Origin: an uncultured Bdellovibrionales bacterium
Lineage (GTDB): Bacteria; Bdellovibrionota_C; UBA2361; SZUA-149; CAZDIO01
Reading direction: 5' to 3'
Assembly: GCA_964505555.1 (NCBI GenBank)
Contig: CAZDIO010000102.1
Location: forward strand, 13,355-77,354
DNA: 64,000 bases
The number at the start of each line of letters is the position of its first letter. Position 1 is the stretch's first letter. Below the pieces are notes generated by a model that was not told where the DNA came from, searched no databases, and worked only from the letters and a program-made list of their open reading frames with translations. This document shows, piece after piece, positions 1,829-18,801 of the stretch. The translations under genes were made by a program, and so were the position numbers.

Positions 1829-2656
1829 GCATTCAAACACCATCTTGAAGCTATATGGTTCGAGCAACAAAAAACGTTGCATCAGACCCTTATCAAGCTC
1901 ATCAATCAAAGCAAAAAGTTTCTTACAGAGCTTTTCTGGAAGGAGGTGGCGAAGGGGTGCAATGCAAGGCAGAAAAAAATGGAAATGTTTTTTTTCCGCC
2001 CTTGAAAATGAACTTTCAAGTAGAGTAAAATCTTGAGTTTTCATAACGTGCGAAGCCGCCCATCGAGTTCGCGTTCCGCGCCAAACTCCAACCGACCGAT
2101 TGAGGTTAAATATCGGGTTATGACCCAAACATTCGATTCCAAGGAGAACCCCTCGAGGACTTAGCACCCGACACATCTCTTTTAGTGCAGAGGGAAGATT
2201 AAAACTCGAAAATGCTTCATGGTTAATCACGACATCAAAACTATCATCCGCAAAATTGAGTGTGTCCGTATCCATCGTCTGAAACGAAACCTTTTGATGC
2301 AAGCCCCGCTCAAAAGCTCCCTGCGAGGCAACTTGCACAGCCGCTGGAGCGATATCAATACCGATTACTGAAGCAGCACCAAAAGCACCTGCCAAGATAC
2401 TATGTTTTCCAGTTCCACAGCCAACCTCAAGAATTCGTGCTCCCTGACAGATCGCACGAAGCCGGGTAAGAAAAAAATCTTCACTCCTATGGAGGATCTG
2501 TTCGCGCACCTCTGGCGAAGTAAAGTGACGAGAGGCCGCATAAAGCTCTTGATAGACCTCCCGTTCAGTCGCCTTCCACGGATCCTCTGGTAGTAATTCT
2601 CGACCGGAATTAACCACAGTGATCTCTTCCATCGGTCGTTCTTTGGAACTTTGCAT
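1781..2656 (-). CDS. Class I SAM-dependent methyltransferase
   Basis: SAM-binding motif ILEVGCGTGKHSILAGAFGAASVIGIDI (motif I E/DxGxGxG). Convergent with wzz-like gene. Confidence 0.7.
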   Translation of the reverse strand: MQSSKERPMEEITVVNSGRELLPEDPWKATEREVYQELYAASRHFTSPEVREQILHRSEDFFLTRLRAICQGARILEVGCGTGKHSILAGAFGAASVIGIDIAPAAVQVASQGAFERGLHQKVSFQTMDTDTLNFADDSFDVVINHEAFSSFNLPSALKEMCRVLSPRGVLLGIECLGHNPIFNLNRSVGVWRGTRTRWAASHVMKTQDFTLLESSFSRAEKKHFHFFLPCIAPLRHLLPEKLCKKLFALIDELDKGLMQRFLLLEPYSFKMVFECSGPLKNGDTRKTFSG

Positions 2657-2865
2657 TACTCTTTCTTATGAACTCTAGCACTGTATTTTTGACACTATAG
2701 AAGAAGGATAAAGAGAAGACAAATTCTCCACTCCTCTGTAAGCCTTGAATTTGTTATGTAATAAAATATCATCAAATGAGTGCAAAACAAGTGCCCTTAT
2801 GTTATGTAGTGCGGCTTAATCAGTATGGTCAAGCTGAGATTATTGTTGGAGATTATTAAGACCTT

Positions 2866-3969
2866 ATGAAGCAAATTCCCTATTTTGACTATCCTCATAC
2901 CTTTCGTTCAGAAGAAGAATCTCTTCTTGCGATTATTACTGATATCGGGCGAAGAGGAGCGTTTGTCCTGCAAAACGATCTCACACAGTTTGAAAAGAAT
3001 TTGGCGATCTTTGCAGAGTCCCCCTTCGCGGTAGGAGTTGCAAATGCCACAGATGGACTAACTATCGCTCTGCGAGCAGCAGGGATTGGTCCTGGTGATG
3101 AGGTAATCTTTTGCTCACACACCTTTGTGGCAACTGCTGCTGCAATTCACCATACGGGTGCTACGCCGGTGCCTGTTGAATGCCAAGCTGATCATTTGAT
3201 CGATCCTCACTCAGTGAAAAAAGCGATAACAAAACGCACAAAAGCGATCCTTCCTACACAGCTCAATGGGCGAACCGCAGAAATGGATCTCTTGATGGCG
3301 ATCGCCGAAGAAAACAATCTCCTCCTTATTGAAGATGCGGCACAAGCTCTTGGCTCTCGTTTTAGGGGGAGACAAGCAGGCACTTTTGGGGTTGCCTCAG
3401 CAATTAGCTTTTTCCCTGCAAAATCGCTTGGCTGCTTAGGAGATGGTGGCGCAGTACTTGTTCGAAATGAAGAGCTCTATCACAAAATACGATTAATGAG
3501 AGATCACGGTCGAAGCGCAACCGGTGAAGTTGTGATGTGGGGGGTTAATTCCCGCCTTGATAATTTACAAGCAGCGATATTGGATTATCGATTAAAATCT
3601 TTCGATACGGTCATTGCGCGCCGCAGAAAGATCGCTCAAATCTATCAAGAAGAACTAGAAGCAACGTCCCAAGTTGTTCTCCCACCCGGGCCAAATGCAA
3701 ACAGTGATCACTTTGATACCTTTCAAAATTATGAGATCGAGGCCGAACTGAGAGATGCTTTAAAGAATTTTCTTCGTGAGCAAGGTGTGGGCACTTTGAT
3801 TCAATGGGGAGGAAAAGCGGTACATGAATTTCCAGCGCTGGGATTTCAGGTGAAACTTCCCTTCACAGAAAAAATGTTTGAACGATGTTTGATGCTCCCG
3901 ATGAACATGTCTCTAGCGGATGAAGATGTTCGACATATTTGTACGGTGATAAGAAAGTTTTATGGCTAG
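2866..3969 (+). CDS. DegT/DnrJ/EryC1/StrS-family PLP-dependent sugar aminotransferase
   Basis: Conserved family blocks: GxANATDGLTIAL, DEVIxxSHTFVATA, LIEDAAQALGS, and the SFFPAKSLGCLGDGGAV block with PLP lysine. 367 aa. Confidence 0.85.
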   Translation: MKQIPYFDYPHTFRSEEESLLAIITDIGRRGAFVLQNDLTQFEKNLAIFAESPFAVGVANATDGLTIALRAAGIGPGDEVIFCSHTFVATAAAIHHTGATPVPVECQADHLIDPHSVKKAITKRTKAILPTQLNGRTAEMDLLMAIAEENNLLLIEDAAQALGSRFRGRQAGTFGVASAISFFPAKSLGCLGDGGAVLVRNEELYHKIRLMRDHGRSATGEVVMWGVNSRLDNLQAAILDYRLKSFDTVIARRRKIAQIYQEELEATSQVVLPPGPNANSDHFDTFQNYEIEAELRDALKNFLREQGVGTLIQWGGKAVHEFPALGFQVKLPFTEKMFERCLMLPMNMSLADEDVRHICTVIRKFYG

Positions 3970-4807
3970 TAGTTTTGACGGCCTTGTGCCCGATCCCATC
4001 AGCTCGAAGGAGCTGGCAAAAAGGATTCGAATCCACGCATTAGAAATGGCAAACCGAGGCTCTAGCTCGCATATCGCTTCTAGCCTTTCTATTGCGGACA
4101 TTCTTGCCGTTCTTTATGGAGAGGTTTTGCAGGTAGACCCCACCAATCCTCAGTGGCCTGCTCGAGATCGCTTTATCTTGAGCAAAGGTCATGCTGGAGC
4201 AGCTCTTTATGCAACCCTGGCGGAAAGAGGGTTTTTCCCGCCTGAACGTCTCCTCTCACACTATCAGAATGGTTCCGATCTTAGTGGACATGTATCTCAC
4301 AAAGGTATCCCTGGGGTGGAGCTCTCCACGGGATCTCTAGGACATGGGCTTGGGGTCGGTGCCGGAATGGCATACGGAGCAAGACTTGATGCACAGACTC
4401 ATCGAGTCTTTGTGTTGATGAGTGATGGAGAGTGTGACGAAGGTTCAAATTGGGAAGCTATTTTATTTGCTGCACATCATCAACTTGATAACCTGGTGGC
4501 AATCATCGATTATAATAAGATACAAAGCCTTGCTCCTGTTTCAGAAACGTTGGGACTTGAGCCCTTCCGTGCAAAATGGGAGGCCTTTGGTTGGGAAGTA
4601 AAGGAATTAGATGGTCATCACCATCAGGAACTTTTTAGTGCTTTCTCAAAAATTCCTTTTGAAACAGGAAAGCCAAATTGCATTATTGCTCACACAACCA
4701 AGGGAAAAGGAGTTAAGTTCATGGAAGACTCTGTACTTTGGCACTACCGCACTCCTCAGGGAAGTGAATTTGAACGAGCATTAGCAGAGCTTCATTCTAC
4801 CTTATGA
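3962..4807 (+). CDS. Transketolase, N-terminal (ThDP/PP-binding) subunit of a split transketolase
   Basis: 281 aa. Motifs SKGHAGAALYATLAERGF and GSLGHGLGVGAGMAY, with GDGECDEGSNWEA (ThDP-binding GDG...E/N). Overlaps upstream DegT stop (ATGGCTAG). Confidence 0.85.
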   Translation: MASSFDGLVPDPISSKELAKRIRIHALEMANRGSSSHIASSLSIADILAVLYGEVLQVDPTNPQWPARDRFILSKGHAGAALYATLAERGFFPPERLLSHYQNGSDLSGHVSHKGIPGVELSTGSLGHGLGVGAGMAYGARLDAQTHRVFVLMSDGECDEGSNWEAILFAAHHQLDNLVAIIDYNKIQSLAPVSETLGLEPFRAKWEAFGWEVKELDGHHHQELFSAFSKIPFETGKPNCIIAHTTKGKGVKFMEDSVLWHYRTPQGSEFERALAELHSTL

Positions 4808-5760
4808 GAGATTGTTTTATCTTTAGGCTCTGTCAGATCGCAGAACACAATCCGCGTGTCATGCTCCTTACTGGAGATCTCGGATTTGCGGTGTTTGATG
4901 AATTTCGCAGTCGGTTTCCTCGACAGTTTCTTAATGTCGGTGTTGCAGAACAGAACCTCACCGGGGTAGCAACTGGATTAGCTCTAGAAGGGCGCGTTGT
5001 GTTTACCTACTCAATTGGAAACTTTCCAACTTTGCGTTGCTTAGAGCAGATTCGAAGCGACGTGCTCTATCATAACGCCAATGTAAATATTGTATCCGTG
5101 GGCTCTGGCTTTAGTTATGGTGCGCTTGGAATGTCTCATCATGCGACTGAGGATATAAGCATTATGCGCGCACTCCCTGGTCTGACGATCATGTCCCCAG
5201 GTGATGATTGGGAAGCTGAAGAATGCACCCAGGCACTGGTCATGAAGCAAGGTCCTGGATATCTACGGCTCGATAAATCAAGCGCTGGAAACACAAAAAA
5301 GCCTGGCGAAATCTTTCAATTAGGCCAAGGCCGGGTACTTCGCGAGGGGAATAACGCAACTTTGATTACGACAGGTGGAATTTTGAAGTTAGTGCTTGAA
5401 GTCGCTGATCAACTTGCTCTTGCCAAGCTCCCTTGTCGAGTGATTAGTCTCCCAACTCTAAAACCGTTAGATTGGGGGCTTATTGAACGTGGAGCGATGG
5501 AAACAGGTGGAATCGTGACGATTGAAGAACATACCGTCGAGGGTGGGTTGGGAAGCCTCGTCGCAGAACACTTATTAGAATCAGGAATTATTCCAGAAAA
5601 GTTTTTCCGTATCGGATTGCGAGATGGATTTCCTACTGTCGTGGGAAGCCAGGAGTATCTACGATCAATATGTAAAATTGATTCTCGCAGTATTTTTGAA
5701 ACCCTCGCTAAGTTCCTTCAGCGCGAGGAAAAGCTCCCCCACAGAGGTGTAGCAAGATGA
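4804..5760 (+). CDS. Transketolase, C-terminal (pyrimidine-binding + C-term) subunit
   Basis: 318 aa. Motifs NVGVAEQNLTGVATGLALEG and HHATEDISIMRALPGLTIMSPGD. 4-nt overlap (ATGA) with the N-subunit gene. Confidence 0.85.
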   Translation: MRDCFIFRLCQIAEHNPRVMLLTGDLGFAVFDEFRSRFPRQFLNVGVAEQNLTGVATGLALEGRVVFTYSIGNFPTLRCLEQIRSDVLYHNANVNIVSVGSGFSYGALGMSHHATEDISIMRALPGLTIMSPGDDWEAEECTQALVMKQGPGYLRLDKSSAGNTKKPGEIFQLGQGRVLREGNNATLITTGGILKLVLEVADQLALAKLPCRVISLPTLKPLDWGLIERGAMETGGIVTIEEHTVEGGLGSLVAEHLLESGIIPEKFFRIGLRDGFPTVVGSQEYLRSICKIDSRSIFETLAKFLQREEKLPHRGVAR

Positions 5761-6527
5761 AGCGAACACTGGACATCATTGCGGCAACACTTGGACTCAC
5801 TTTTCTGGCTCCTATTTTATCGTGTCTCGCATTTGCAATATGGCTCCAAGATCGGCACTCCCCATTCTATATTAGTCAACGAGTAGGGCGTGGGGGTAAT
5901 GTGTTTCAGATGGTGAAGTTGCGTTCGATGATCGCCTTTGCAGATCGTGCGGGAATTGATTCCACATCAGCAACGGATTCGCGCATTACACCGCTTGGTC
6001 ATTTTATTCGACGGTATAAAATGGATGAGTTATGCCAACTTTGGAATGTTCTAAGAGGTGAGATGAGCTTAGTCGGACCAAGACCGAATGTTCAGTGGGA
6101 CACTCAGCGGTACACCACAGAAGAGAAAAAGCTTCTTACCGTCCGGCCTGGAGTTACTGACTTGGCTTCGATCGTCTTCTCAGATGAGGGAGAAATACTT
6201 CGAGACAGTAGCGATCCGGACCTGGATTACAGCCGCATCATTCGGCCTTGGAAAAATCGGCTTGGATTGATTTATATCGAAAACCAATCCTTTTTCCTTG
6301 ATCTTCGAGTTATTTATCTTACCTGCATTGCGATCATTTCTAAAGATCGCGCACTGCAATCAGTCGTCAAAATTCTTATCGGATTTGGCGCTGACCCACT
6401 CCTGATAAGAATGGCTAGCCGAAAAGAGGCCTTACTTGCATATCCTCCTCCAGGAAGTAACTCCATTGCCACTACAGGGAAACCCGCAGATGAGGGTGCT
6501 GCGATGCCTAAACGACAATGCGGTTAA
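5757..6527 (+). CDS. Polyprenyl-phosphate sugar phosphotransferase (bacterial sugar transferase, PglC/WbaP-C-like initiating enzyme)
   Basis: 256 aa. N-terminal TM, then RVGRGGNVFQMVKLRSM...DELCQLWNVLRGEMSLVGPRP motif typical of the PF02397 family. ATGA overlap with upstream gene. Confidence 0.85.
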   Translation: MKRTLDIIAATLGLTFLAPILSCLAFAIWLQDRHSPFYISQRVGRGGNVFQMVKLRSMIAFADRAGIDSTSATDSRITPLGHFIRRYKMDELCQLWNVLRGEMSLVGPRPNVQWDTQRYTTEEKKLLTVRPGVTDLASIVFSDEGEILRDSSDPDLDYSRIIRPWKNRLGLIYIENQSFFLDLRVIYLTCIAIISKDRALQSVVKILIGFGADPLLIRMASRKEALLAYPPPGSNSIATTGKPADEGAAMPKRQCG

Positions 6528-6536
6528 AACACCAGA

Positions 6537-7292
6537 TTAGTCAATGAAGGCGTACGCCACATAAGGATCGAAATCAAAACGCCGGAGCCTCAATTTATTT
6601 GGTCCTAGCACATCGAGTAGAGCCCCTGTTTCGCCAGGCCAAATCGGATTGTCGAGTTCGTCAAATGCAATAACAGCTCCTTTCGGCATCCGGGGAACAA
6701 AATACTCAAGAGCAATCTTTGTCGGCTCATACAGATCAAGATCTAAATACAAAAGACTCACGACAGTGTGTTTGTTGTTTTCAATAAAAGTTGGGATCGT
6801 TTCACGAACATCTCCCCGGACAAGGTGTACTTTATCAACATGCCCAAGAAACCGGTTATCATCATAAATAGAGATGAGCTGCAAGATTTCATCATAAGAA
6901 TTAGCCGCAAGATCTCCTTTTTGTGGCAAATACTGCTTGCTGTGATCTCGTTGCGTAATTCCATTTAACCCTGAAAAACTATCAAATCCATATATTCTCC
7001 GGGTAAGATTATTTGGTTCAAGAACAGAAGAAAAATGTGCCCAACTCATTAAACCAAACCCCTGATTCACTCCACACTCTATGATTGAACCTTTGACAGG
7101 GAGGCAAAGTTTAAAAAGCTCATAGAGCGTAAGAAATCGTGTTACCTTTTGACGGCGAATGTATTTGGGAAAGTTCTCGAGATTCTGTTCTGTAATCAGG
7201 TTATTTCCGTTAAAGAGCGCCGCAATTCGTTCTCCGATCTCTGCTTCAGTTGTGGTTCTAAGCCCACCTTCAGGAACGACTGATGATTTCAT
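6537..7292 (-). CDS. TylF/MycF-family SAM-dependent O-methyltransferase
   Basis: 251 aa. Motifs GSIIECGVNQGFG..., DVRETIP and LYLDLDLYEPT, characteristic of macrocin-O-methyltransferase-like sugar O-MTs. Confidence 0.7.
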   Translation of the reverse strand: MKSSVVPEGGLRTTTEAEIGERIAALFNGNNLITEQNLENFPKYIRRQKVTRFLTLYELFKLCLPVKGSIIECGVNQGFGLMSWAHFSSVLEPNNLTRRIYGFDSFSGLNGITQRDHSKQYLPQKGDLAANSYDEILQLISIYDDNRFLGHVDKVHLVRGDVRETIPTFIENNKHTVVSLLYLDLDLYEPTKIALEYFVPRMPKGAVIAFDELDNPIWPGETGALLDVLGPNKLRLRRFDFDPYVAYAFID

Positions 7293-7457
7293 ATGTCTAA
7301 TTAAACACTAGCTTAGCGGTATTATTCGAGCCGTTTCCGCTCTTTCGTTGACATCCAAAAAGTTATACTCGGAATTAGTAGGCAATAGCAAGTTTTCTTC
7401 TAGAGAGAATTTCTCTCCTCAACCCTTCATTAGGCTCGAGAGAGCACTTTTTTTCAA

Positions 7458-8594
7458 CTATGCTGCCTCCCTCTTCTGTCTCCGATAAAACTCTTCGTAT
7501 CTGCTTGTAATCGCCTGAATGCTAAAAAAAGATTCTATTCGGACCCGAGCGGCGGCGCCTAAGGCTTCTTGTTCCGGTCGACTCATGACGATAATTTTCT
7601 CCCAGCCCTGTGCTAACGCCACAGGAGAGCCGATCGGAACAATGATACCGCTGCTACCGATAAGCGTTCTACAATCTCCGACGTCAGTAACCACGCATGG
7701 GATGCCACAAGCCATCGCTTCTCCAACCACGTTTGGGAAACCTTCACTCTTTGAGGATAAGGTAAAGATATTAAGTGCTGCCATAATTTTCTCAGCATCT
7801 TTTCGTTCCCCAAGCAGACGCACATGAGACGCAAGATCTAATCGCTCAATAATTTTTATAAGCTCAGCATTTGATGAATCAAAACCCTCTCCACAAAGAA
7901 GAAATGTGCATTGTTTGCAACTTTTTCGAAGCTCCGTTGCTGCATTTAAAAAGTTTTCAGGGTCCTTGATAGGATCGTATCGCGCAACCATCCCAATAAG
8001 CATCTCTGTAGGCCCAACATTTAACTCCCTTCTAATTTGCGCTCGTGCTTCTTGATCAGGACGAAACACCGTTGTGTCAAAACCGTTAGGAATTATCTCA
8101 AATCTCTTGGTGTTATATCCCAAACGTTTGTGACTTTCTTTTGCTGCTGAAGAGTTACAGATAATTGCCTTTGGGACACTGTATGAAAGCCACGCGCAGA
8201 GTTTCATTACCATCCATGTTGTCTTCTTTGTTCGTGAAATCTCCACATCACTTCGTCGACAATTCCAAATAACGGGAGCCTTACTTATCAATCGTGTTAC
8301 GACTCCACCAAGAAGATCGGCATGATACATCCATGTTTGAACAATATCTGGAGAAAAAGTTTTTATATAGCGCGCAAGTTTAAAGCTTGCTGATAAGTCA
8401 GGAACCCCTCTTTTCATATTAAGAGTTCTGACAACAATTCCAATCTCCTCAAGACGTTGAGCGATGGGGCCGGGAGAAATAAGAGAGATAACTTCGTTCT
8501 CGAATTCATCCCGATTCATATGTGCAAGCAATTTAAAAAGCATCATTTCAGCACCACCAACGTGCAAACCAGTGATGATGTGGAGGACCTTCAT
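7458..8594 (-). CDS. Glycosyltransferase family 4 (GT-B, Glycos_transf_1)
   Basis: 378 aa. N-terminal MKVLHIITGLHVGGAEMMLFKL and C-terminal EGFPNVVGEAMACGIPCVVTDVG (E-x7-E region). Confidence 0.85.
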   Translation of the reverse strand: MKVLHIITGLHVGGAEMMLFKLLAHMNRDEFENEVISLISPGPIAQRLEEIGIVVRTLNMKRGVPDLSASFKLARYIKTFSPDIVQTWMYHADLLGGVVTRLISKAPVIWNCRRSDVEISRTKKTTWMVMKLCAWLSYSVPKAIICNSSAAKESHKRLGYNTKRFEIIPNGFDTTVFRPDQEARAQIRRELNVGPTEMLIGMVARYDPIKDPENFLNAATELRKSCKQCTFLLCGEGFDSSNAELIKIIERLDLASHVRLLGERKDAEKIMAALNIFTLSSKSEGFPNVVGEAMACGIPCVVTDVGDCRTLIGSSGIIVPIGSPVALAQGWEKIIVMSRPEQEALGAAARVRIESFFSIQAITSRYEEFYRRQKREAA

Positions 8595-8673
8595 TACCTA
8601 AAACATCTCCTTGCTTTCATAAGAAAATCCATGTTTATTATATACTTCTGGAAAAATCTATAATTGCCATTAC

Positions 8674-9963
8674 ATGATATTCTCCTTACTTCCGATGTTT
8701 GTTGTCACCACCACTTCTGTCGTAATGCTCTTGGTATGGGGGCTTTCGCAACGTTTCAACCTGCACTCATTGCACAACATTTTTATCCTTATTTGGGCAT
8801 ACTATACGTTTTGTGTCCCGTTGGATTTGATGTTTTTCCCTGAATTACTTTCTCCCTCAGTCGGTGGCATGCCTAATCTCGGAGATGAAACCTTCGGAGA
8901 TGAGATAGGAATTACATTTTTTCATTATCTGATACTTGGCGGCTCATTTTTTTTAATCTACCACTTTCTGCCGGGTGGATCTCATAAAAACCCCAGGTGG
9001 AAATTATTGGAACTTCCTCTTCCCCCTCTCTGGGTGGTGATTACTTTAAATACGTTGGTCTTCGTAGCCTCAGTGGTGCTCATCGGCAGCCTTTCGCGAA
9101 GCGAAGCCGCGCTCTTGGGTGCGACAAATGTTTCATATAAGTTTTTTACGATCCTCACTACATTCGTTCAGGCGCTTAATATTATTTATGTTCATGAGAT
9201 TAACGACCGACGGAAAGCGCTTCTCATAGTACTTGCTTCATTTCTTTTTACACTCGCCACTGGTGGTCGAACGACTTTTGTAATTTTCATGCTCATCTTT
9301 CTCATCCGTTATGAAATACCGATTTCACGAGTTGGGCGAATTGTAACCGGAGTACTCGCCATTTGTTTTGCTGCTTTTTGGAAATTAATCTGGAGCAGTT
9401 TATCCCAGATGATTTTTTTTGGAGGCTCGGCTTCTGCGCTTTTAGACTTACCCTCTGTGACGGTTTCTAACTTTGAGGGGATCGGTCCCTATGAAATATC
9501 GGTATCCCTTCTTCGTCACTGGGGCTCCTCCCCTTGGTTACTGGGAGAGACCTATATCGTTACTCCGTTGCAATTATTGTTCCCACGTTTTCTTAGTTGG
9601 GAGCCGGTACAAACGCTTGCCGAATATTATGGTCAGTTATTCTCGCCAAACTTTGTTGCTCTTGGTGGTGGTATTGGTTTTTCAGCCGTTGGCGAGGCTT
9701 GGCTTAATTTTTCCCACTTTGGGCCTTTTTTACTCGGCTTGGTTTTTGGTTATATCGCTAAATATTATGACAGCCACCCGCGAGGATTGAGTTATTGGAT
9801 AGTCGTTATTGTTTTCTGTAGATTGTTTCGTTCAGATTTTGCTTCCATTTTTAAGAGTTGGTTGCTGATCTTGGGAATCTCTATACTTGTGGTAACAGTA
9901 TGTCTAAGGCTGCTTGGTGAGTTGCAGGCCAAAATGCTGACACAATGCAAGGAAAACCATTGA
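8674..9963 (+). CDS. Polytopic membrane protein, O-antigen/oligosaccharide repeat-unit polymerase (Wzy)-like
   Basis: 429 aa with about 10–12 predicted TM segments and no soluble domain. Location is between a GT4 gene and other glycan genes. Assignment is by context only. Confidence 0.4.
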   Translation: MIFSLLPMFVVTTTSVVMLLVWGLSQRFNLHSLHNIFILIWAYYTFCVPLDLMFFPELLSPSVGGMPNLGDETFGDEIGITFFHYLILGGSFFLIYHFLPGGSHKNPRWKLLELPLPPLWVVITLNTLVFVASVVLIGSLSRSEAALLGATNVSYKFFTILTTFVQALNIIYVHEINDRRKALLIVLASFLFTLATGGRTTFVIFMLIFLIRYEIPISRVGRIVTGVLAICFAAFWKLIWSSLSQMIFFGGSASALLDLPSVTVSNFEGIGPYEISVSLLRHWGSSPWLLGETYIVTPLQLLFPRFLSWEPVQTLAEYYGQLFSPNFVALGGGIGFSAVGEAWLNFSHFGPFLLGLVFGYIAKYYDSHPRGLSYWIVVIVFCRLFRSDFASIFKSWLLILGISILVVTVCLRLLGELQAKMLTQCKENH

Positions 9964-10010
9964 AGCAACCGGTTAATTTGGTGGTTTAACGTTAGCGTTA
10001 AAAAGAAACT

Positions 10011-11438: not shown

Positions 11439-12557
11439 CTATTGTTCCTTGGATACGGTGCGTGGAAAAGGACTTTGATGCAAGGAATCACTCCCGGGCG
11501 CCCCTGGAGATGAGTCTCCAAATGTCACCGTTCTTCCCAGCTTACGAGATTCGCTCGCAGCTTCCAAGAGCGAAACAACGTCAACACCAGAATTACCATC
11601 CGTAAGTGGGTTTTCATTGTTCACAATACAATGAATGAAATGCTCTGCTTCAACCTGAAGCGGCTCTCGAAATGAAAGTTTCGGAATGACAATATCTCCT
11701 GCTCGTTGAATCAGCGCAAACTGATCATAAGAGTGAAATGGTCTTGCACCCCAAGTATCTTTTACACTTTTTCGCTCAACTCCTTTGTCAAAAACAGTGA
11801 TTTTTTGATCTAGAGAGGTATCATCATAAATCACCATCTTTTTGCTTCCAACGAGTACCCCCTTTCGGGTCTTACTCGGGTCAAGCCAACTTACGTGGAT
11901 GTTGGCAAACTTTCCGCTCGGGAAGCGAAGACTTACGAAGGAGATATCGTCAATATCCTGTTGCAGGTAAGACATCCCGGTTGCGATTACTTCCGTGGGC
12001 TGCTCACCAAACCAGTAGAGCACAATAGAAAGATCATGTGGCGCTAAATTCCATAGCGCATCGACATCTTGCCTTACCTGACCCAAAGCCAAACGCTGCA
12101 TATACACGTAATAAATCTGGCCAAGCTCACCGTCATCAATAAACTTTTTAACCCACCGCACGGCATCGTTGTAAAGGAAGGTGTGTCCCACAGCGAGCTT
12201 AACGTTTTGAAGCTGTGCAAGCTCAACGAGTTCTTTGGCTTCTATTACGGTCGTAGCAAGTGGCTTCTCAACAAAAACATGCTTTCCTCGAAGGATCGCT
12301 GCTTTTGCCTGCCGATAATGTTCCTTTGCAGGACTAGCGATGATTACCGCCTCAATTTCTGATCGGGACAGAAGATCATCCAAAGAACGATCGATATATC
12401 GAACTCGTGGATATTTCTTCTCTATTTCTCTATGTTGCTCCTCTCGCGGCTCACAACAAGCAATAAGATCGCATCCTTCAAGAGAGGAAAAACAGCGCAG
12501 GAGGTTTGCACCCCAGTATCCATAGCCGATCAGTGCGCAATTTATTGTTCGTGACAC
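11439..12557 (-). CDS. Gfo/Idh/MocA-family NAD(P)-dependent oxidoreductase (sugar-nucleotide dehydrogenase-like)
   Basis: 372 aa. N-terminal Rossmann IGYGYWGANLLRCF plus the EKP motif (VFVEKPLAT). Confidence 0.8.
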   Translation of the reverse strand: MSRTINCALIGYGYWGANLLRCFSSLEGCDLIACCEPREEQHREIEKKYPRVRYIDRSLDDLLSRSEIEAVIIASPAKEHYRQAKAAILRGKHVFVEKPLATTVIEAKELVELAQLQNVKLAVGHTFLYNDAVRWVKKFIDDGELGQIYYVYMQRLALGQVRQDVDALWNLAPHDLSIVLYWFGEQPTEVIATGMSYLQQDIDDISFVSLRFPSGKFANIHVSWLDPSKTRKGVLVGSKKMVIYDDTSLDQKITVFDKGVERKSVKDTWGARPFHSYDQFALIQRAGDIVIPKLSFREPLQVEAEHFIHCIVNNENPLTDGNSGVDVVSLLEAASESRKLGRTVTFGDSSPGAPGSDSLHQSPFPRTVSKEQ

Positions 12558-12752: not shown

Positions 12753-13727
12753 ATGCAACTAACGGGAAAAACAGTTCTTGTAACTGGTGGTGCAGGATTC
12801 ATTGGCAGTCATATCGTTGATGAATGCCTAAAGCGTGATGCAAAAAAAGTCATTGTGCTTGATAATTTTGTAATCGGCCACAATACCAATATTACCCATC
12901 TTGAGAATAATACTCGGGTGAAAATTGAAGCTGGGGATGTAAGAGATTTTGACTCTGTTTCTCCTCTTGTTCGCTCAGCTGACATTGTCTTTCATGAAGC
13001 AGCTTCCAAGCTTGTTGTTTCACGCACCCGACCTCGAATTGATCTGGAAACAAATGTAATCGGCACTTTCAATGTGCTTGAAGCCGCGCGGGGAAATAAT
13101 ACACTTATTGTTCACGCTTCTACAGGCTCTGTCCTAGGAAGCGGAGATGATGCAATGAAGGAGCAACACCCTCATAACCCAAGCACCCTTTATGGAATCA
13201 GTAAAAGCACAGCAGAACGGTACTGCCAATTCTATGCGCGCGAATTTGGGGTTCGAGTAGGAATCCTTCGTTACTTTCACGTTTTTGGCCCAAGACAAGA
13301 CTTCGATGGGGAGGCAGGCGTGGTAAGTATCTTTCTTGGTCGTGTACTTCGTAAAGAACCTCCAATTATCTTTGGAACTGGAGAGCAGATTAGATGCCTT
13401 ACTTTTGTAAAAGATGACGTGCAGGCTAATTTTTTACTGCTCAATGAACTTGCGAAAGGAAATTACCTTGGAGAAGTTTTTAATGTTGCCTCAAAAACAC
13501 GCATCGAAGTTGGTGAATTGGCCAAGATGATTATTAGCAAATATGGCCCGGTAAATATGAAACCACAATATGGTCCCTCTCGTCCGGGAGAAAATCTTCG
13601 TCCGATTCCAGATACAGCGAAGATTGAGAGCTTAGGTTTTCGTGAATCCGTAACTTTTGAGCAAGGGTTAGAACACACAAAACAGTGGGTAGAACAAAAA
13701 CTTCATCGGCCTACAGGTTCTTCATGA
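12753..13727 (+). CDS. NAD-dependent epimerase/dehydratase (extended SDR), sugar-nucleotide modifying
   Basis: 324 aa. VLVTGGAGFIGSH Rossmann motif and YxxxK (YGISKSTAE). Confidence 0.85.
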   Translation: MQLTGKTVLVTGGAGFIGSHIVDECLKRDAKKVIVLDNFVIGHNTNITHLENNTRVKIEAGDVRDFDSVSPLVRSADIVFHEAASKLVVSRTRPRIDLETNVIGTFNVLEAARGNNTLIVHASTGSVLGSGDDAMKEQHPHNPSTLYGISKSTAERYCQFYAREFGVRVGILRYFHVFGPRQDFDGEAGVVSIFLGRVLRKEPPIIFGTGEQIRCLTFVKDDVQANFLLLNELAKGNYLGEVFNVASKTRIEVGELAKMIISKYGPVNMKPQYGPSRPGENLRPIPDTAKIESLGFRESVTFEQGLEHTKQWVEQKLHRPTGSS

Positions 13728-14803
13728 AGAAGCTCAGTTGGCTACAGCTCGTTGGCGTAGTCATTATCGCGCGAATTATTTACAAGCTTGATTTTCAGCA
13801 ATTCTTATCTGTTTTTTCAAATGTTGATTTTCAAGCTCTTACTCTCTCCGCAATATGTTTACTGATTTTTGGTCTCAGTAAAAGTATTCGGTGGTATTCT
13901 TTTTTGCGAATACAAAAATTGCCGCTCCGATTGTTTCAAACGATTAACATCTATCTTATCGGCCAGCTATTTTCTCTTGTAACACCAGCAAAGCTTGGTG
14001 AATTTATCAAGGTTTTCTATGTTGAAAAAGAAACGCCAGTAAATCATTCGCAGGCACTTTCTAGTGTTGTTGCGGATCGTTTATGTGACTTACTCATGCT
14101 TTTTAGTATCGCAATCATTTGTATTCAAGAGAACTTCCTTCCAAAACCATACCAAACCCCGTGCGAGATTGTTAGCGGCCTACTTCTCCTTTCCCTCCTC
14201 CTTCTTCTTCACCGCCGTTCTGCCCTTGTACTGTACGACCTGATTAAGCGCTTGCCGTTTATTGGTTCATATTTCGCAATCAGCCGTAAATTTTTTTCTG
14301 ATTTCTATAATAGCTTCTCACAGTTTAAGTGTAGGATGGTAATCATTCCGATCGCCTTAACTTTTTCAGCTTATCTTTTTCTTTTCTTTCACGCATATTA
14401 CCTTGCTCAAGCCTTACGGATTGATATGACATTGAAAGAAACTGTTTTCTGTATCACGATTTCAAATATCGCAGCACTTCTTCCTATTTCAGTAGGAGGA
14501 TTAGGGCCACGAGAGCAAGCAATGAAGGAGTTTTTCACACGTGTACTTCCTCGGGGAAATACTCTCTCTACAGAAGCACTCTCGTATTTGAGCGCATCTG
14601 CTGTCGGCTTCTCACTTGCTTTTTATGGAATGTTTTTGCTCACTGCTGGTGTTTTTGGGTATATTGCATGGCTGCGAAATCCGGTAAGTTTGTCAAGCGT
14701 ACAACGCCTTGCTGACGAGATTCGATTACAAACAACAAAGCATCGACGAGAAGAAGTTTCTCTTGTGGAAGTAGGTGAGGTTAACGAGGCATGCCACCAA
14801 TAA
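13724..14803 (+). CDS. Flippase-like / LPG-synthase-TM (UPF0104) family membrane protein
   Basis: About 8 TM. Start chosen at MKKLSW (ATGA overlap with epimerase stop). The longer ORF from 13685 is less likely. Confidence 0.45.
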   Translation: MKKLSWLQLVGVVIIARIIYKLDFQQFLSVFSNVDFQALTLSAICLLIFGLSKSIRWYSFLRIQKLPLRLFQTINIYLIGQLFSLVTPAKLGEFIKVFYVEKETPVNHSQALSSVVADRLCDLLMLFSIAIICIQENFLPKPYQTPCEIVSGLLLLSLLLLLHRRSALVLYDLIKRLPFIGSYFAISRKFFSDFYNSFSQFKCRMVIIPIALTFSAYLFLFFHAYYLAQALRIDMTLKETVFCITISNIAALLPISVGGLGPREQAMKEFFTRVLPRGNTLSTEALSYLSASAVGFSLAFYGMFLLTAGVFGYIAWLRNPVSLSSVQRLADEIRLQTTKHRREEVSLVEVGEVNEACHQ

Positions 14804-15564
14804 ATTCTCAAGCTGCGGCAGTTGCATCTCCCGAATTGAACGCTCAAGCTCGACCGCGAGTCGCAGTCATTATTCCTGTCTATAATGAAGAAAAAGTTAT
14901 CGGACGAGTTCTTGATGCCATTCCACGAGAACATGTTGATGTGGTGATCGTGGTTGATGATGGTTCAACTGATTCGACCCCAACTGAATTAGAAAAAAGA
15001 GATGTTCAGGTCATCCGTCACGAGAAACAACTCTTTATCGGGGCGGCTATTCGAGATGGACTTCGGAAGGCAAAAGAGCTGGGAATAGACATTGTGTGCG
15101 TTTTTGCCGGGAACGGAAAGGACGATCCTCAAGAATTACCATTATTACTTCGACCGATCATCGAACAAGGTTATGATTTTGTCCAAGGCTCTCGCTATCT
15201 TCCGGGTGGGCGATCCGGAAAAATGCCTCGTCATCGTCGGATCGTAACAAAGGTTTACCCACTTCTTGTGAGATTTTTCACCGGAGTCAAGATTACTGAT
15301 GGAACTAATGGATTTCGGGCTTATCGCTTACAACTCCTTGATGATCCGGAGATAGATCTCGATCAGCCATGGCTCAGTGAGTGCCTAGAGTATTATTTTT
15401 CACTCAGAGTGTTTCAGCAAGGGTATTCAGTGACCGAAGTCCCTGTTTCAAAAATCTATCCTGATACTGCTGTGTATAGTGAGTATACAAAAGTTCGTCC
15501 CGGAATTGGATGGCTCAATCGCCTTAAACCACTTTTTTTTCTTGGTTTCCGCCTGAGAAAGTAA
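14791..15564 (+). CDS. Glycosyltransferase family 2 (polyprenyl-phosphate glycosyltransferase, DPM1/GtrB-like)
   Basis: 257 aa. VAVIIPVYNEE...VVDDGSTDST and the DGTNGFRAY motif of GT2 Dpm1-like enzymes. Confidence 0.85.
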   Translation: MPPINSQAAAVASPELNAQARPRVAVIIPVYNEEKVIGRVLDAIPREHVDVVIVVDDGSTDSTPTELEKRDVQVIRHEKQLFIGAAIRDGLRKAKELGIDIVCVFAGNGKDDPQELPLLLRPIIEQGYDFVQGSRYLPGGRSGKMPRHRRIVTKVYPLLVRFFTGVKITDGTNGFRAYRLQLLDDPEIDLDQPWLSECLEYYFSLRVFQQGYSVTEVPVSKIYPDTAVYSEYTKVRPGIGWLNRLKPLFFLGFRLRK

Positions 15565-16825
15565 GCTCGCCTCGAATATCTTCGCGAAGGCTGATGAGAA
15601 AAATAACGGCGGCACCAACAAAAAAGACTGCACTTCCAGCCAGCGTTGCATATGCTGCTCCCTCCGTGGAAGTTTCAGGGATAAGGAGCAGTCCGATAGA
15701 AACGTTTATGATCAGCGATATTCCTGCAAGAACTCCTTGTATTCGAAGACGCCTCATGATGGTAATTGCTGCGTTGAGATATCCATAGAGATACATCATT
15801 GCAGCAGCAACCATGAAGATTCCGAGAATCTTTCCTGAGTGTGCAAGATCTTTTCCATAAATGAGCGACAATAGCTGATCCCCATAGGCAAAGCTGATTA
15901 CAATACCAACCGCACCGATACTGAGTGCAAATAATAACAACCCCCTTAGAAAAAATATGAACCGCTTTCGAGAAGCATGATACGTTTGAGCAAGCGGAGT
16001 AAGTGCCGATGCAGTTAACGCCTCACAGAGCGTCACGCCGATGTACATAAAGTAGCTCACCGCCGTATAGATTCCAAGCGAACCAAGACCTTGCAAACGC
16101 TCTAATAAATATCGAGGAGCATTCGTGTTAAGAGAAACCAGAAGTCGTCTTGCACCCAGAGGCGAGGCTTTTTTTGCAAGTAAAAAGAGCTGTTGATATC
16201 TAATTGGCTGAGCAAGTTCTCTCCATGAAAGATTTTCAGCAAGAAACGTGCGCGCACGTTTTGAAATGAAATACAGCACGATTCCACGCGAAAGAATGAG
16301 AAAAAACAACGCTGATATTAAATCACTAAAAAAATACATCCCAATCAAAATAGAAAGAACACTGAGTACTCCATTGATGATTTGAAACTTCGCAACTTCT
16401 CCTAAGCGTTCCTTGCGCTGAAAAAGTGCTTCGACCATATCGTGGAAGGAATCAACAACCTTTACCAAAGCAACAAGAAGTATCACCTGCCACTGCTCCA
16501 CATCTTTGGTGTAAGTAAAACCAACACCCATAATGACAATAAAGCAGATGATCGAGGTAAAGAAGCGGAGATGAAAATACGTACACGGTTCATTGTCACG
16601 ATTAATATCCGTAACCAGTAAATCCCGGGCACTAAAATTAAAAAATGCAAAAAATGGTGCGCTCAATGCAAGTGCGAGCCCAAAAAGGCCCACCATTTCT
16701 ACATCCCCTAACCACATCAGAATAACCAATATCATCCACTGCGAAAACGAGTAGAATACGTTTCCGATGAGCATCCAGACAAAATTTGACCCGATGCGGC
16801 TTTGTAGAGAAAACCACCTAACCAT
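15524..16825 (-). CDS. Polysaccharide biosynthesis protein / Wzx-type flippase (MOP superfamily)
   Basis: 433 aa, 12–14 TM. N-terminal pattern (NFVWMLIGNVFYSFSQWMILVILMWL) typical of PF01943. Confidence 0.7.
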   Translation of the reverse strand: MVRWFSLQSRIGSNFVWMLIGNVFYSFSQWMILVILMWLGDVEMVGLFGLALALSAPFFAFFNFSARDLLVTDINRDNEPCTYFHLRFFTSIICFIVIMGVGFTYTKDVEQWQVILLVALVKVVDSFHDMVEALFQRKERLGEVAKFQIINGVLSVLSILIGMYFFSDLISALFFLILSRGIVLYFISKRARTFLAENLSWRELAQPIRYQQLFLLAKKASPLGARRLLVSLNTNAPRYLLERLQGLGSLGIYTAVSYFMYIGVTLCEALTASALTPLAQTYHASRKRFIFFLRGLLLFALSIGAVGIVISFAYGDQLLSLIYGKDLAHSGKILGIFMVAAAMMYLYGYLNAAITIMRRLRIQGVLAGISLIINVSIGLLLIPETSTEGAAYATLAGSAVFFVGAAVIFLISLREDIRGELTFSGGNQEKKVV

Positions 16826-17014: not shown

Positions 17015-18118
17015 ATGAGCGGAGTCCCTTTTGCAGATCTCAGTAGACAGCATTCGTCGATGAAATCAGAGCTCCAAACTGCCTTTGATCGAGTTGTCGG
17101 TAAAGGTGATTTTATTCTTGGTGCAGAAGTAAAACATTTTGAAGAGGAGTGGGCAAACTTTACCGGCGCAAAAGCTGCTATCGGTTGCTCGAATGGAACA
17201 GATTCTCTCGTGCTGATCTTACTCGCATTAGGTATTGGTCCTGGTGATGAAGTCATCACTGTTTCACATACATTCTTTGCAACTGTTGAAGCAATTCAAA
17301 GCGTGGGTGCAACCCCTATTTTGGTTGACATTCTTCCACGCAATGGGTTGATGGATCCTCAATTAATTGAACCCGCTATTACTCCTCGGACAAAGGCGAT
17401 TATTCCAGTTCACCTCTATGGTCAGCCGGTTGAACTGGATGAGATTCTTGCAGTTTCAGAGAAGTATAATCTTTACTGTATCCAAGATGCCGCTCAAGCG
17501 CATGGTGCTCTCTATAAGAAAAAGCCACTTGCCAATTATGGTATCGCTTCATCATACAGTTTCTACCCGGGCAAAAATCTCGGCGCTCTTGGAGACGCAG
17601 GCGCTGTAGTCACTAATGATTTAGAACTTGCAAAGAGAATGAGATCGTTACGTGATCATGGGCGAAGCGAAAAATACAGTCACAATGAATTTGGCTGGAA
17701 TATGCGCATGGATGGTTTACAAGCGGCATTTCTATCTGCAAAACTCCCTAAGCTTTCCGGCTGGAACGATGATCGAAAGAAAGTTGCTGCAATGTACCTA
17801 GAAAGCTTGCGCGAACTACCAGGCCTTACCTTTCTGGAAATTTCTCGCCATGTCGATCACGTTTTTCATCTTTTTGTAGTTTGCCATGAACAACGAGACG
17901 ACCTCCAAAGGAAATTAAAAGCTGAAGGAGTCGCAACAGGAATTCACTACCCGTTAGGATGTCACCAACAAACTGCTTGGAAAAACCGCTACGGCGAGAT
18001 GAATCTTCCGCATACAGAGAAACTTGCCCGTACCTGTCTCTCGCTGCCGATCTTTGGAGAGATGAGGGAAGAGGAGGCAATGATGGTTGTCTCTGCACTT
18101 CGTCGCGTGCTTAGCTAA
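17015..18118 (+). CDS. DegT/DnrJ/EryC1/StrS-family sugar aminotransferase
   Basis: 367 aa. GCSNGTDSLVLIL, DEVITVSHTFFAT, IQDAAQAHGA and SFYPGKNLGALGDAGAV (PLP Lys). Confidence 0.85.
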   Translation: MSGVPFADLSRQHSSMKSELQTAFDRVVGKGDFILGAEVKHFEEEWANFTGAKAAIGCSNGTDSLVLILLALGIGPGDEVITVSHTFFATVEAIQSVGATPILVDILPRNGLMDPQLIEPAITPRTKAIIPVHLYGQPVELDEILAVSEKYNLYCIQDAAQAHGALYKKKPLANYGIASSYSFYPGKNLGALGDAGAVVTNDLELAKRMRSLRDHGRSEKYSHNEFGWNMRMDGLQAAFLSAKLPKLSGWNDDRKKVAAMYLESLRELPGLTFLEISRHVDHVFHLFVVCHEQRDDLQRKLKAEGVATGIHYPLGCHQQTAWKNRYGEMNLPHTEKLARTCLSLPIFGEMREEEAMMVVSALRRVLS

Positions 18119-18156: not shown

Positions 18157-18801
18157 TCACTTTCGTCCGAGGTGTATCGGACCTGAAGGTGAGGGAGAAA
18201 GAAGCACACAGCTTGTTTGATCAAGTGCATATTTAAGATCGCATCGGGGACAACTTACTTCGATCTTCACTGAAAAATCCTTCATCGCTCCAAGTTTTTC
18301 ACCGCATTCGCATATCCATCCAACCTGCTTTGCTGGAACACCAAGCATAAAAGCATAGTCGGGAACGTTTTTTGTTATAACTGCGCCAGCGGCAACAAAA
18401 GCGTGTTTCCCAATGGTGCGGCCACATACGACAGTGGCATTAGCACCGATCGAAGCACCTTCCCTAACGAGAGTCTTTTTATAAAATTCAGCTCCTCGTT
18501 GGGGATACTTAGAGCGGGGATCTAAAACGTTGGTAAACACCATCGAGGGGCCACAGAAGACAAAATCTTCAAGTTCAACCCCTTCGTACACAGAAACGTT
18601 GTTTTGAATTTTTACATAATTTCCAATTTTTACACCCTCTCCCACAACAACATTTTGCCCAAGAGAGCAATGAGCACCGATACTTGCATTTTTTTGCAGA
18701 TGACTAAAATACCAGATCTTTGTCCCCTCTCCAATGGTAACATCTTCATCGATAATGCTTGAGGAATGAACAAAATATGATTTCTTCTCTGCCACGTTCA
18801 T
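18157..18801 (-). CDS. Hexapeptide-repeat (left-handed beta-helix) sugar N-acetyltransferase with C-terminal Cys4 tail
   Basis: 214 aa. Repeated [LIV]G.... hexapeptides (IGAHCSLGQNVVVGEGVKIGNYVKIQNNVSV). The C-terminus CECGEK...CPRCD resembles a zinc ribbon. Confidence 0.8.
   Translation of the reverse strand: MNVAEKKSYFVHSSSIIDEDVTIGEGTKIWYFSHLQKNASIGAHCSLGQNVVVGEGVKIGNYVKIQNNVSVYEGVELEDFVFCGPSMVFTNVLDPRSKYPQRGAEFYKKTLVREGASIGANATVVCGRTIGKHAFVAAGAVITKNVPDYAFMLGVPAKQVGWICECGEKLGAMKDFSVKIEVSCPRCDLKYALDQTSCVLLSPSPSGPIHLGRK

Follow-up and report, generated by a model that had tools for sequence, protein, structure and literature searches.

We describe here four genes at positions 2866-6527 of a stretch of 64,000 nucleotides, called the window below, which was taken from contig CAZDIO010000102.1 (assembly GCA_964505555.1) of an uncultured Bdellovibrionales bacterium. 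According to the listing of open reading frames (ORFs), they encode a DegT-family aminotransferase (2866-3969, + strand, 367 aa), two subunits of a transketolase-type enzyme, namely TktN (3962-4807, +, 281 aa) and TktC (4804-5760, +, 318 aa), and a small phosphoglycosyl transferase (PGT; 5757-6527, +, 256 aa). Considered together with its homologues in other phyla, this set of genes appears to be a portable cassette for making an unusual first sugar on undecaprenyl phosphate (Und-P), in which a thiamine diphosphate (ThDP)-dependent transketolase would attach a two-carbon unit to a nucleotide-activated keto-sugar.

Organization of the operon

The four reading frames run into one another. The stop of degT and the start of tktN share 8 nt, ATGGCTAG at 3962-3969, and in the raw sequence both tktN/tktC (4804-4807) and tktC/PGT (5757-5760) overlap by the 4 nt ATGA. 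The start calls of tktC and of the PGT gene are supported by their homologues, which begin at the same residues, MR(D/T) and MKR respectively. The preliminary description of this DNA had four genes overlapping by 4–8 nt in one coupled operon within a glycan locus, and this is borne out by the ORFs, by the overlaps of 8, 4 and 4 nt and by the Pfam domains of the neighbouring genes. Since ATGA-type overlaps are frequent in bacterial operons, the overlaps by themselves are unremarkable; what is beyond chance is the same gene order recurring in more than 25 loci of unrelated phyla.

Upstream of the operon, a gap of 209 bp (2657-2865) separates degT from a divergent methyltransferase gene and is presumed to be the promoter region. 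There is a single sigma-70-like match per strand in it (2745-2772, +; 2722-2694, -), and the promoter and terminator scans over 2400-8800 gave no excess over the shuffled expectation, these matches included.

The aminotransferase belongs to PF01041 (DegT_DnrJ_EryC1, 1e-94) and has in SFFPAKSLG the lysine that holds pyridoxal phosphate, not the His of the dehydratase members. Its scores lie below all NCBIfam equivalog cut-offs, and its regiochemistry is not assignable. Its closest matches among solved structures are 7B0D (an entry named glutamine--scyllo-inositol transaminase, 233 bits) and DesV, QdtB and WbpE (233-207 bits), while Campylobacter jejuni PglE gives 111 bits. With the C-3 aminotransferases DesV, QdtB and WbpE nearer than the C-4 enzyme PglE, the comparison argues against a plain PglE-like role. 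As for the last gene of the operon, its product matches PF02397 (Bac_transf, 3.4e-50) over residues 2-194 of 256 and TIGR03025 (187 bits) over the C-terminal catalytic part of that model, and its translation contains an Asp-Glu dyad (KMDEL) and an SLVGPRP motif. Judged by domain and motifs, it is a small monotopic polyprenyl-phosphate phosphoglycosyl transferase of the PglC-like kind.

A split transketolase with a rebuilt acceptor channel

TktN matches PF00456 (Transketolase_N, 9.6e-43) and TktC matches PF02779 (Transket_pyr, 1.1e-25) and PF02780 (Transketolase_C, 8.2e-22), so that apart from a weak DXP_synthase_N match all Pfam domains are of the transketolase type. The architecture is that of a split transketolase, with the PP domain on one chain and the Pyr and transketolase C-terminal domains on the other. 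The top solved matches are 6YAK, the N-terminal subunit of the Carboxydothermus hydrogenoformans split transketolase, for TktN (267 bits) and 6YAJ for TktC (180 bits), and human transketolase is the second-best solved match for both subunits.

On the donor side the enzyme is intact. The catalytic set that was checked comprises, in E. coli numbering, the His cluster H26, H66, H100, H261 and H473, which contacts C1-OH and the C2 carbonyl of the donor, and E411. In the alignment TktN keeps His37, His77, His110 and His261 (human His37, His77, His110 and His258), and TktC keeps His112 (E. coli H473) and the cofactor-activating Glu49 (human E366, E. coli E411). The His cluster and the activating Glu align with their human and C. 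hydrogenoformans counterparts, and relatives show no or almost no variation at these positions. The Mg-ThDP motif, defined as (G/S)DG-X(25-30)-N, is kept in TktN as S154-D155-G156...N185 and is invariant in the clade. Because all donor-side catalytic residues are kept, dihydroxyethyl-ThDP should still be formed.

The acceptor side has been rebuilt. In transketolase, Ser385, His461 and Asp469 (E. coli numbering) line the acceptor/phosphate channel, where they hold the aldose acceptor by its phosphate and C2-OH, and two Arg (R358 and R520) bind the anionic group of the substrate. Of this set, characteristic of the canonical EC 2.2.1.1 enzyme, TktC keeps the two Arg, as Arg2 (human R318) and Arg155 (human R474), but has Ala29 in place of Ser385 (human Ser345), Gly100 in place of His461 (human His416) and Leu108 in place of Asp469 (human Asp424). 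Such a rebuilt channel points to a different electrophile. The best NCBIfam transketolase equivalog, NF004559, gives 274 bits for TktN and 161 bits for TktC against a cut-off of 488, which applies to the full-length protein.

The altered channel is the rule among relatives, which are cited below by our own locus numbers. The canonical pattern 'ADLSKST...THAGITVGEDGxSHQ' was found in only 6 of 78 related loci (L062, L068, L073, L074, L080 and L085), split transketolases that keep all five channel residues and whose hosts are Syntrophomonadaceae, two Dehalococcoidia metagenome-assembled genomes (MAGs), Desulfothermobacter, a Clostridia MAG and Desulforamulus. The remaining loci have Gly or Ser at the His461 position, and at the Asp469 position Asp is nearly always replaced. 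An exhaustive profile-free search returned 1,762 representatives at E≤1e-30; residues were read in the best 150 of them (50%-identity representatives), and since position 100 of TktC is Gly in 146 of these and position 108 is Asp in 0 of 150, the window-type transketolase is, as judged from these residues, a large and distinct family. The C. hydrogenoformans enzyme is like the window pair in its two-gene layout, ThDP/Mg motif, catalytic His and Glu; however, its 'ADLSKST...THAGLTVGEDGASHQ' keeps Ser/His/Asp, whereas TktC of the window reads 'GDLGFAV...VGSGFSYGALGMSHH', and the loci with the canonical motif have no surrounding genes for nucleoside diphosphate (NDP)-sugars.

The view that TktN/TktC is a transketolase by fold and not the pentose-phosphate enzyme of central metabolism, which had been put forward from the DNA before this comparison, is therefore supported by the lost His461, Asp469 and Ser385 and the sub-cut-off NCBIfam scores, together with the DegT/PGT synteny and the E1 replacement presented below.

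Conservation of the cassette across phyla

TktN homologues at 68-75% identity occur in Sphaerospermopsis (Cyanobacteria), Planctomycetota, Acidobacteriota, Proteobacteria ('Deltaproteobacteria') and many metagenomes. We scanned one genome per species, which returned 80 loci, and counted the members of the cassette by ORF clustering in the 27 loci whose TktN is ≥60% identical. The transketolase pair is flanked by a PGT orthologous to that of the window (53-58%) in 19 of the 27 loci, the PGT orthologue standing after TktC in at least 12 loci, and by a DegT (48-59%) in 18. A TylF-type methyltransferase (55-69%) is present in 9/27, with a second TylF type in 4 more, and a PglF-like Polysacc_synt_2 dehydratase of ~650 aa in 7/27. 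The usual order, with MT for a further methyltransferase, is (MT)-DegT-TylF-TktN-TktC-PGT(-PglF), in hosts as diverse as Bryobacterales, Steroidobacteraceae, Pirellulaceae, Burkholderiaceae, Roseovarius, Hoeflea, Verrucomicrobiia, Actinomycetes and Saccharibacteria. Loci with the PglF-like dehydratase adjacent are L003, L006, L013, L019, L021, L025, L034, L086, L087, L089, L090 and L091. At least one NDP-sugar gene family lies within ~8 kb in 59 of 76 non-canonical loci, versus 0 of 6 canonical ones. Taken as a whole, the clade comprises no fewer than 150 clusters (50% identity) and extends over Cyanobacteria, Planctomycetota, Acidobacteriota, Proteobacteria, Chloroflexota, Actinomycetota and Firmicutes as well as candidate phyla, and no description of the cassette was found in the literature on transketolase with PGT, O-antigen or nucleotide sugar.

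The partner of the transketolase varies in kind. In Sphaerospermopsis (L003), Adhaeretor mobilis (L010), Brevundimonas (L024) and Vicinamibacterales (L032) an aldo-keto reductase (AKR) replaces DegT, the order being GT4-TylF-PGT-AKR-TktN-TktC, with GT4 a family 4 glycosyltransferase. L004 has the order DegT-TktN-TktC-SDR, with a short-chain dehydrogenase/reductase (SDR) at the end. The gene coupled to the transketolase is thus always one for a ketone-consuming enzyme, i.e. the DegT that overlaps tktN in the window and DegT, AKR or SDR in sister loci. Two of these loci have further peculiarities. A radical-SAM/SPASM protein is encoded directly upstream of MT-DegT-TktN-TktC-SDR in L004 (L004:7057-8034), which suggests further tailoring chemistry in some cassette variants. 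In the Brevundimonas MAG, TktN and TktC are apparently fused in one ORF (L024:9938-11734), in a sequence with ambiguous bases; if real, the single ORF would appear to be a natural re-fusion of the split enzyme.

Two methyltransferase genes border the operon in the window. The TylF-family S-adenosylmethionine (SAM) methyltransferase gene at 6537-7292 (-; PF05711 1.7e-10, with PF13578), convergent with the operon, has orthologues (55-69%) adjoining the transketolase pair in L009, L011, L012, L014, L018, L019, L023, L025, L034, L035, L053 and L090. It is very probably part of the cassette with 2866-6527, and its product probably O-methylates the modified sugar. On the other side, the gene divergent from degT (1781-2656, -) encodes a class I SAM methyltransferase (Pfam Methyltransf_31/11/25, 1e-20), a possible tailoring enzyme for N- or O-methylation whose membership of the cassette is uncertain. 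A Methyltransf_11 gene stands directly upstream of DegT in the sister cassettes L004, L009, L011, L018, L088 and L089; with 26-34% identity over the SAM-binding core, orthology of 1781-2656 to the cassette methyltransferases is not claimed.

Replacement of the transketolase by an E1-type enzyme

A survey from the side of DegT gave an independent view of the slot downstream of it. The closest database homologues of DegT are 61-68% identical, and six of them (63-67%), chosen on long contigs, were sampled. In all six a two-subunit ThDP enzyme is encoded directly downstream of DegT. This is a split transketolase with the same Gly/Leu pocket in four, L086 (Litorilinea aerophila), L087, L090 and L091. 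In the other two the transketolase slot is filled by a pair of the pyruvate dehydrogenase (PDH)-E1 alpha/beta type (PF00676 with PF02779/PF02780), located between DegT and PGT (L088:8131-10267; L089:8154-10045), which is a non-orthologous replacement. A PglF-like dehydratase is adjacent in 5/6 of these loci, and the gene directly before DegT is for a GNAT acetyltransferase (L086, L087, L090 and L091) or a Methyltransf_11 protein (L088 and L089). Enzymes of the E1 type, e.g. KbDH-alpha/beta, have been shown to attach C2 branches to deoxy-keto-sugars (PMC12247030). The E1 swap in an otherwise orthologous cassette is, of all the single arguments for a like task of the transketolase, the strongest.

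Two observations belong to the same loci. L089 encodes a 621-aa fusion of a small PGT (Bac_transf) with a PglF-type Polysacc_synt_2 4,6-dehydratase (L089:10042-11907), which places the first and last soluble-pathway steps in a single polypeptide. The second DegT of L091, compared with solved structures, gave only a partial match, which is uninformative.

Distant relatives of the transketolase

Further away in the clade, a glucose-1-phosphate cytidylyltransferase-type gene precedes the transketolase pair in at least 16 loci, which typically have SDR and DegT/RfbH-type genes and often a family 2 glycosyltransferase (GT2) of the PgfS/ArnC type, in the operon form rfbF - rfbG - rfbH/DegT - SDR - TktN - TktC - GT2. 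In L064 the three rfb products score above the NCBIfam cut-offs as glucose-1-phosphate cytidylyltransferase (RfbF; TIGR02623, 423 bits), CDP-glucose 4,6-dehydratase (RfbG; TIGR02622, 476 bits) and 3-dehydrase (RfbH; NF011936, 714 bits). The products of rfbF, rfbG and rfbH make CDP-4-keto-3,6-dideoxyglucose. It is this compound to which YerE adds an acetyl branch in the synthesis of yersiniose A, before reduction by YerF (PMC12247030), and the distant transketolase relatives hold the position of YerE behind rfbF/rfbG/rfbH.

Other relatives stand in a different context. A subclade with the Gly/Leu pocket, 'ADIGYGEI...GGGVSYGPLGVSHHSTE', comprises L036, L049, L063, L067, L070 and L071, with the transketolase pair mostly near position 10000 of the locus. 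The neighbours, checked in L036, L049 and L070, are ROK-family, ABC sugar-transporter, SDR and GFO/IDH/MocA genes, i.e. non-glycan; these operons are apparently catabolic, and the enzyme of this subclade may act on polyols or on sugars without a phosphate. With the same pocket in such operons, the Gly/Leu pocket was rejected as a marker of a keto-sugar acceptor. The one Streptomyces locus recovered (L081:9791-13444) encodes a split transketolase whose pocket is Ser/Leu and, after it, an FGGY carbohydrate kinase, an ABC permease and a regulator of the SorC type, and this catabolic operon content ruled it out as a miharamycin-like cluster.

Proposed pathway

We suggest the following sequence of reactions. 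TktN and TktC would assemble and, with hydroxypyruvate or a ketose phosphate as donor, form dihydroxyethyl-ThDP ('active glycolaldehyde'), and the rebuilt channel would take a nucleotide-activated keto-sugar, not an aldose phosphate. The likeliest acceptor would be the C-4 ketone of UDP-2-acetamido-4-keto-6-deoxyhexose from a PglF-type UDP-GlcNAc 4,6-dehydratase, and the addition would yield a tertiary alcohol bearing a hydroxyacetyl branch and bring a new ketone into the side chain. The coupled DegT would transaminate this ketone, and in sister cassettes AKR or SDR would reduce the same ketone. The new amine would then be modified by the GNAT of relatives or by a methyltransferase, a hydroxyl would be methylated by the TylF enzyme, and the small PGT would load the finished sugar-1-phosphate onto Und-P. 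The general scheme, in which the transketolase moves ThDP-bound glycolaldehyde to an NDP-4-keto-6-deoxy sugar and DegT amination, methylation and Und-P loading follow, is made moderately probable by the comparative context. More tentative, and in our judgment possible rather than probable, is the precise product, a 2-acetamido-6-deoxyhexose with a 4-C-(1-amino-2-hydroxyethyl) branch, N-/O-methylated or N-acetylated, which would demand a ketone-accepting transketolase and a side-chain-aminating DegT.

Several features of the cassettes point to this scheme. Their only recurrent carbonyl source is a 4,6-dehydratase, and the product of such an enzyme is an NDP-4-keto-6-deoxy sugar; the producer, PglF-like or rfbF/rfbG/rfbH, is found beside the pair in relatives and not in the window. 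Moreover, a ketone-consuming neighbour fits, because the proposed reaction creates a new ketone. The preliminary description had proposed a two-carbon ketol transfer onto a sugar intermediate that gives a chain-extended or branched sugar. The comparative context speaks for the transfer itself, and as to the product, a C-branched sugar is favoured by the ketone acceptor and the analogy with YerE, while chain extension to a heptose or octose is disfavoured.

There are also points that weigh against the scheme. We infer from gene context which acceptor is used, how the steps follow one another and what the product is. PglF, DegT, GNAT and PGT of the sister loci form a complete bacillosamine-type pathway by themselves, which leaves the transketolase without an obvious substrate. 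We know of no bacterial glycan sugar with a 4-C-(1-amino-2-hydroxyethyl) branch and of no DegT that aminates an exocyclic side-chain ketone. In the window, tblastn with PglF, RfbG, RfbF and AKR queries found no PglF-like or other 4,6-dehydratase, and the extended SDR encoded at 12753-13727 was rejected as the keto-sugar source, as it resembles a GalE-type epimerase and has no dehydratase Asp-Glu motif; the glycan locus may extend upstream of the window start. Finally, the Gly/Leu pocket is not glycan-specific, being found also in the catabolic operons with ABC sugar transporters and ROK genes, so that it tells only that the enzyme is not the classical one, and the glycan role rests on synteny.

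The completeness of that amino-sugar set leads to the foremost alternative, which we consider unlikely: an ordinary bacillosamine-like pathway (4-keto to 4-amino to N-acyl/N-methyl to Und-P) in which the ThDP enzyme spares the sugar ring and makes a small C2-derived block (of the glycolyl or acetoin type, or, once transaminated, an aminopolyol) with which the sugar or the glycan is decorated. The arrangement GNAT - DegT - [TK] - PGT - PglF of sister loci, with TK for the transketolase pair, indeed matches the functions of PglD, PglE, PglC and PglF, the AKR variant could just reduce C-4 and give N-acetylquinovosamine (QuiNAc) or N-acetylfucosamine (FucNAc), and the window shows no source of a ring ketone. 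However, DegT stands at 207-233 bits from DesV/QdtB/WbpE and at 111 bits from PglE, the ThDP genes are always between, and translationally coupled to, DegT and PGT, and the relatives in CDP-4-keto-3,6-dideoxyhexose operons have no amino sugar for acylation. In addition, no route is known by which transketolase and E1 enzymes could set free an activated acyl unit unless a lipoyl or acyl carrier protein (ACP) partner takes part, and the nearby genes encode neither.

Still less probable is chain extension, in which the C2 ketol is added to an aldehyde (e.g. a sugar 6-aldehyde or free aldose), with amination and methylation of the resulting heptulose- or octulose-type sugar to follow. Transketolases naturally use aldehydes as acceptors, the donor-side catalytic residues and both anion-binding Arg are retained, and the change of Asp469 to Leu would suit an acceptor without the usual 2-hydroxyl, as follows from work on E. 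coli D469 mutants. Yet neither a sugar 6-oxidase nor GmhA/HldE/GmhB was seen in the window or the cassette loci, the neighbours that recur are 4,6-dehydratases, whose products are ketones, and the chemistry known for the E1-type enzymes found in place of the transketolase is the branching of ketones (PMC12247030).

A housekeeping or precursor enzyme that merely lies in a glycan locus (supplying e.g. sedoheptulose-7-P or erythrose-4-P) is very improbable: a split transketolase can be the central enzyme in some bacteria and archaea, as in C. hydrogenoformans (6YAK/6YAJ), and the 64-kb window has no second transketolase, but the three channel residues kept by the canonical split transketolases of the same scan are lost, the NCBIfam equivalog scores fall far short of the cut-off, the DegT/PGT/TylF synteny is conserved across phyla, and orthologous cassettes carry instead a PDH-E1-type enzyme incapable of pentose-phosphate chemistry.

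Comparison with known systems

The proposed branching reaction has a parallel in the YerE/YerF system of Yersinia pseudotuberculosis, where a C2 unit is put onto the C-4 ketone of a nucleotide-activated 4-keto-6-deoxy sugar, the side-chain ketone is reduced and a surface glycan takes up the product (PMC12247030). The relatives of the window transketolase share with YerE the operon position behind rfbF/rfbG/rfbH. However, YerE is of the decarboxylase (acetolactate-synthase-like) ThDP family, a single chain with TPP_enzyme_N/M/C domains which TktN and TktC do not have, and uses pyruvate as donor to make an acetyl branch, whereas the window enzyme is transketolase-type with two subunits, a predicted hydroxyacetyl branch and a coupled aminotransferase. 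The two are thus analogues by position and not homologues.

The E1-type enzymes include KbDH-alpha/beta of kibdelomycin and those of aldgamycin and kosinostatin, all two-subunit ThDP enzymes that set a C2 branch on deoxy-keto-sugars (PMC12247030). The likeness lies in the E1 alpha/beta pair that holds the transketolase's place in L088 and L089; unlike the window enzyme, these are of the PF00676 subfamily with pyruvate as donor, and they are known from actinomycete antibiotics, not from surface-glycan loci. For the split transketolases of miharamycin and amipurimycin, the passing of a hydroxyacetyl group onto a keto-sugar has been proposed, and the knockouts were without the expected substrate (PMC12247030). 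They are likened to the window enzyme by this description of the chemistry, not by sequence, and differ from it in being located in Streptomyces nucleoside-antibiotic clusters.

A mechanistic precedent comes from DesAB, the steroid-17,20-desmolase of Clostridium scindens, a split transketolase, reportedly assigned by experiment, whose substrate is a tertiary alpha-ketol (the 17-hydroxy-20-keto-21-hydroxy side chain) and which sets a ketone free (PMC3735941, PMC12065433). Its reaction is the microscopic reverse of glycolaldehyde addition to a ketone, and it shows that a split transketolase can handle tertiary ketols and ketones. The resemblance to the window enzyme is mechanistic only: DesAB is catabolic and steroid-acting, and its desABCD operon also encodes a transporter and a hydroxysteroid dehydrogenase, while the neighbours in the window are glycan genes and include neither a 20-hydroxysteroid dehydrogenase (desC/desE) nor a steroid transporter. 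As for the bacillosamine pathway of Campylobacter jejuni (PglF/PglE/PglD/PglC), the cassette is like it in clustering, for the reducing-end sugar, a PGT, a DegT, an N-modifying enzyme and a membrane-anchored Polysacc_synt_2 dehydratase; it is unlike it in the ThDP enzyme inserted between aminotransferase and PGT, and the window is without PglF.

ThDP-dependent C-branching of nucleotide sugars is already a known kind of reaction (YerE, E1-type), and to our knowledge these are the only two ThDP families shown to branch sugars. The basic idea of branching by a transketolase is anticipated by the antibiotic literature; according to a 2025 review, none of the sugar-branching enzymes of the transketolase type has yet undergone in vitro characterisation, and prediction has named just 13 Streptomyces sequences (PMC12247030), which agrees with the earlier remark that the role of split transketolases in glycan clusters is poorly characterised. 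What is new here is a widespread transketolase clade in surface-glycan operons, with an obligatorily coupled aminotransferase as an added twist. C-branched sugars are rare and immunodominant on bacterial surfaces, and their enzymes are wanted as biocatalysts for chiral tertiary alcohols. If the precise product suggested above is the true one, this would be the first transketolase to generate a tertiary alcohol within primary glycan biosynthesis, with the first side-chain-aminating DegT and the first amino-branched sugar. The gene context offers a defined likely acceptor (the product of PglF or RfbG/RfbH), natural swaps between DegT and AKR and between transketolase and E1, and cultured hosts, among them Litorilinea aerophila (L086), Adhaeretor mobilis HG15A2 (L010), Roseovarius sp. 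E0-M6 (L014), Hoeflea sp. AS60 (L018) and Sphaerospermopsis (L003). It also cautions annotators not to read a 'transketolase subunit' gene of a glycan locus as one for a pentose-phosphate enzyme.

Surrounding glycan locus and other features of the window

The locus around the operon is a Wzx/Wzy-type glycan locus. Besides GT2 genes it contains a Wzz-like gene (956-1828), a GT4 gene (7458-8594, -), Wzy (8674-9963), a GFO/IDH/MocA oxidoreductase gene (11439-12557, -) whose product resembles UDP-GlcNAc 3-dehydrogenase, the GalE-type 4-epimerase-like extended SDR gene mentioned above, Wzx (15524-16825, -), two further DegT genes (17015-18118, +; 18826-19965, -) and a hexapeptide acetyltransferase gene of the NeuD/PglB type (18157-18801, -). 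The oxidoreductase, the two further DegT enzymes and the acetyltransferase make up a second amino-sugar module, likely a WbpB/WbpE/WbpD-like 3-acetamido pathway. Neither phosphoenolpyruvate (PEP) mutase/Ppd genes for phosphonates nor heptose-pathway genes are present in the window, and the phosphonate and heptose readings were dropped for this reason.

Within the locus, a 372-aa membrane protein of the LPG_synthase_TM family is encoded in a gene overlapping one for a GT2 (13685-15564), a pairing unusual for O-antigen loci. At its edge, beside a GT2 gene, are found a membrane sulfatase-family protein like lipoteichoic acid (LTA) synthase and phosphoethanolamine transferase (22153-24027, -) and a 587-aa UbiD-family decarboxylase (27422-29185, +). 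Elsewhere in the window, of which G+C is ~43%, there are a flagellin gene (30396-31259, -) and a Replication-initiator-protein-A gene (PF10134, RPA; 36658-38235, -), the latter a hint at a possible plasmid or integrated-element nature of the contig. An export-gate gene of the FlhA/SctV type (50429-52507, +) scores higher with the SctV model than with the FlhA model, and the best named relatives of its product, at ≤57% identity, are from Bdellovibrionota/Oligoflexia MAGs.

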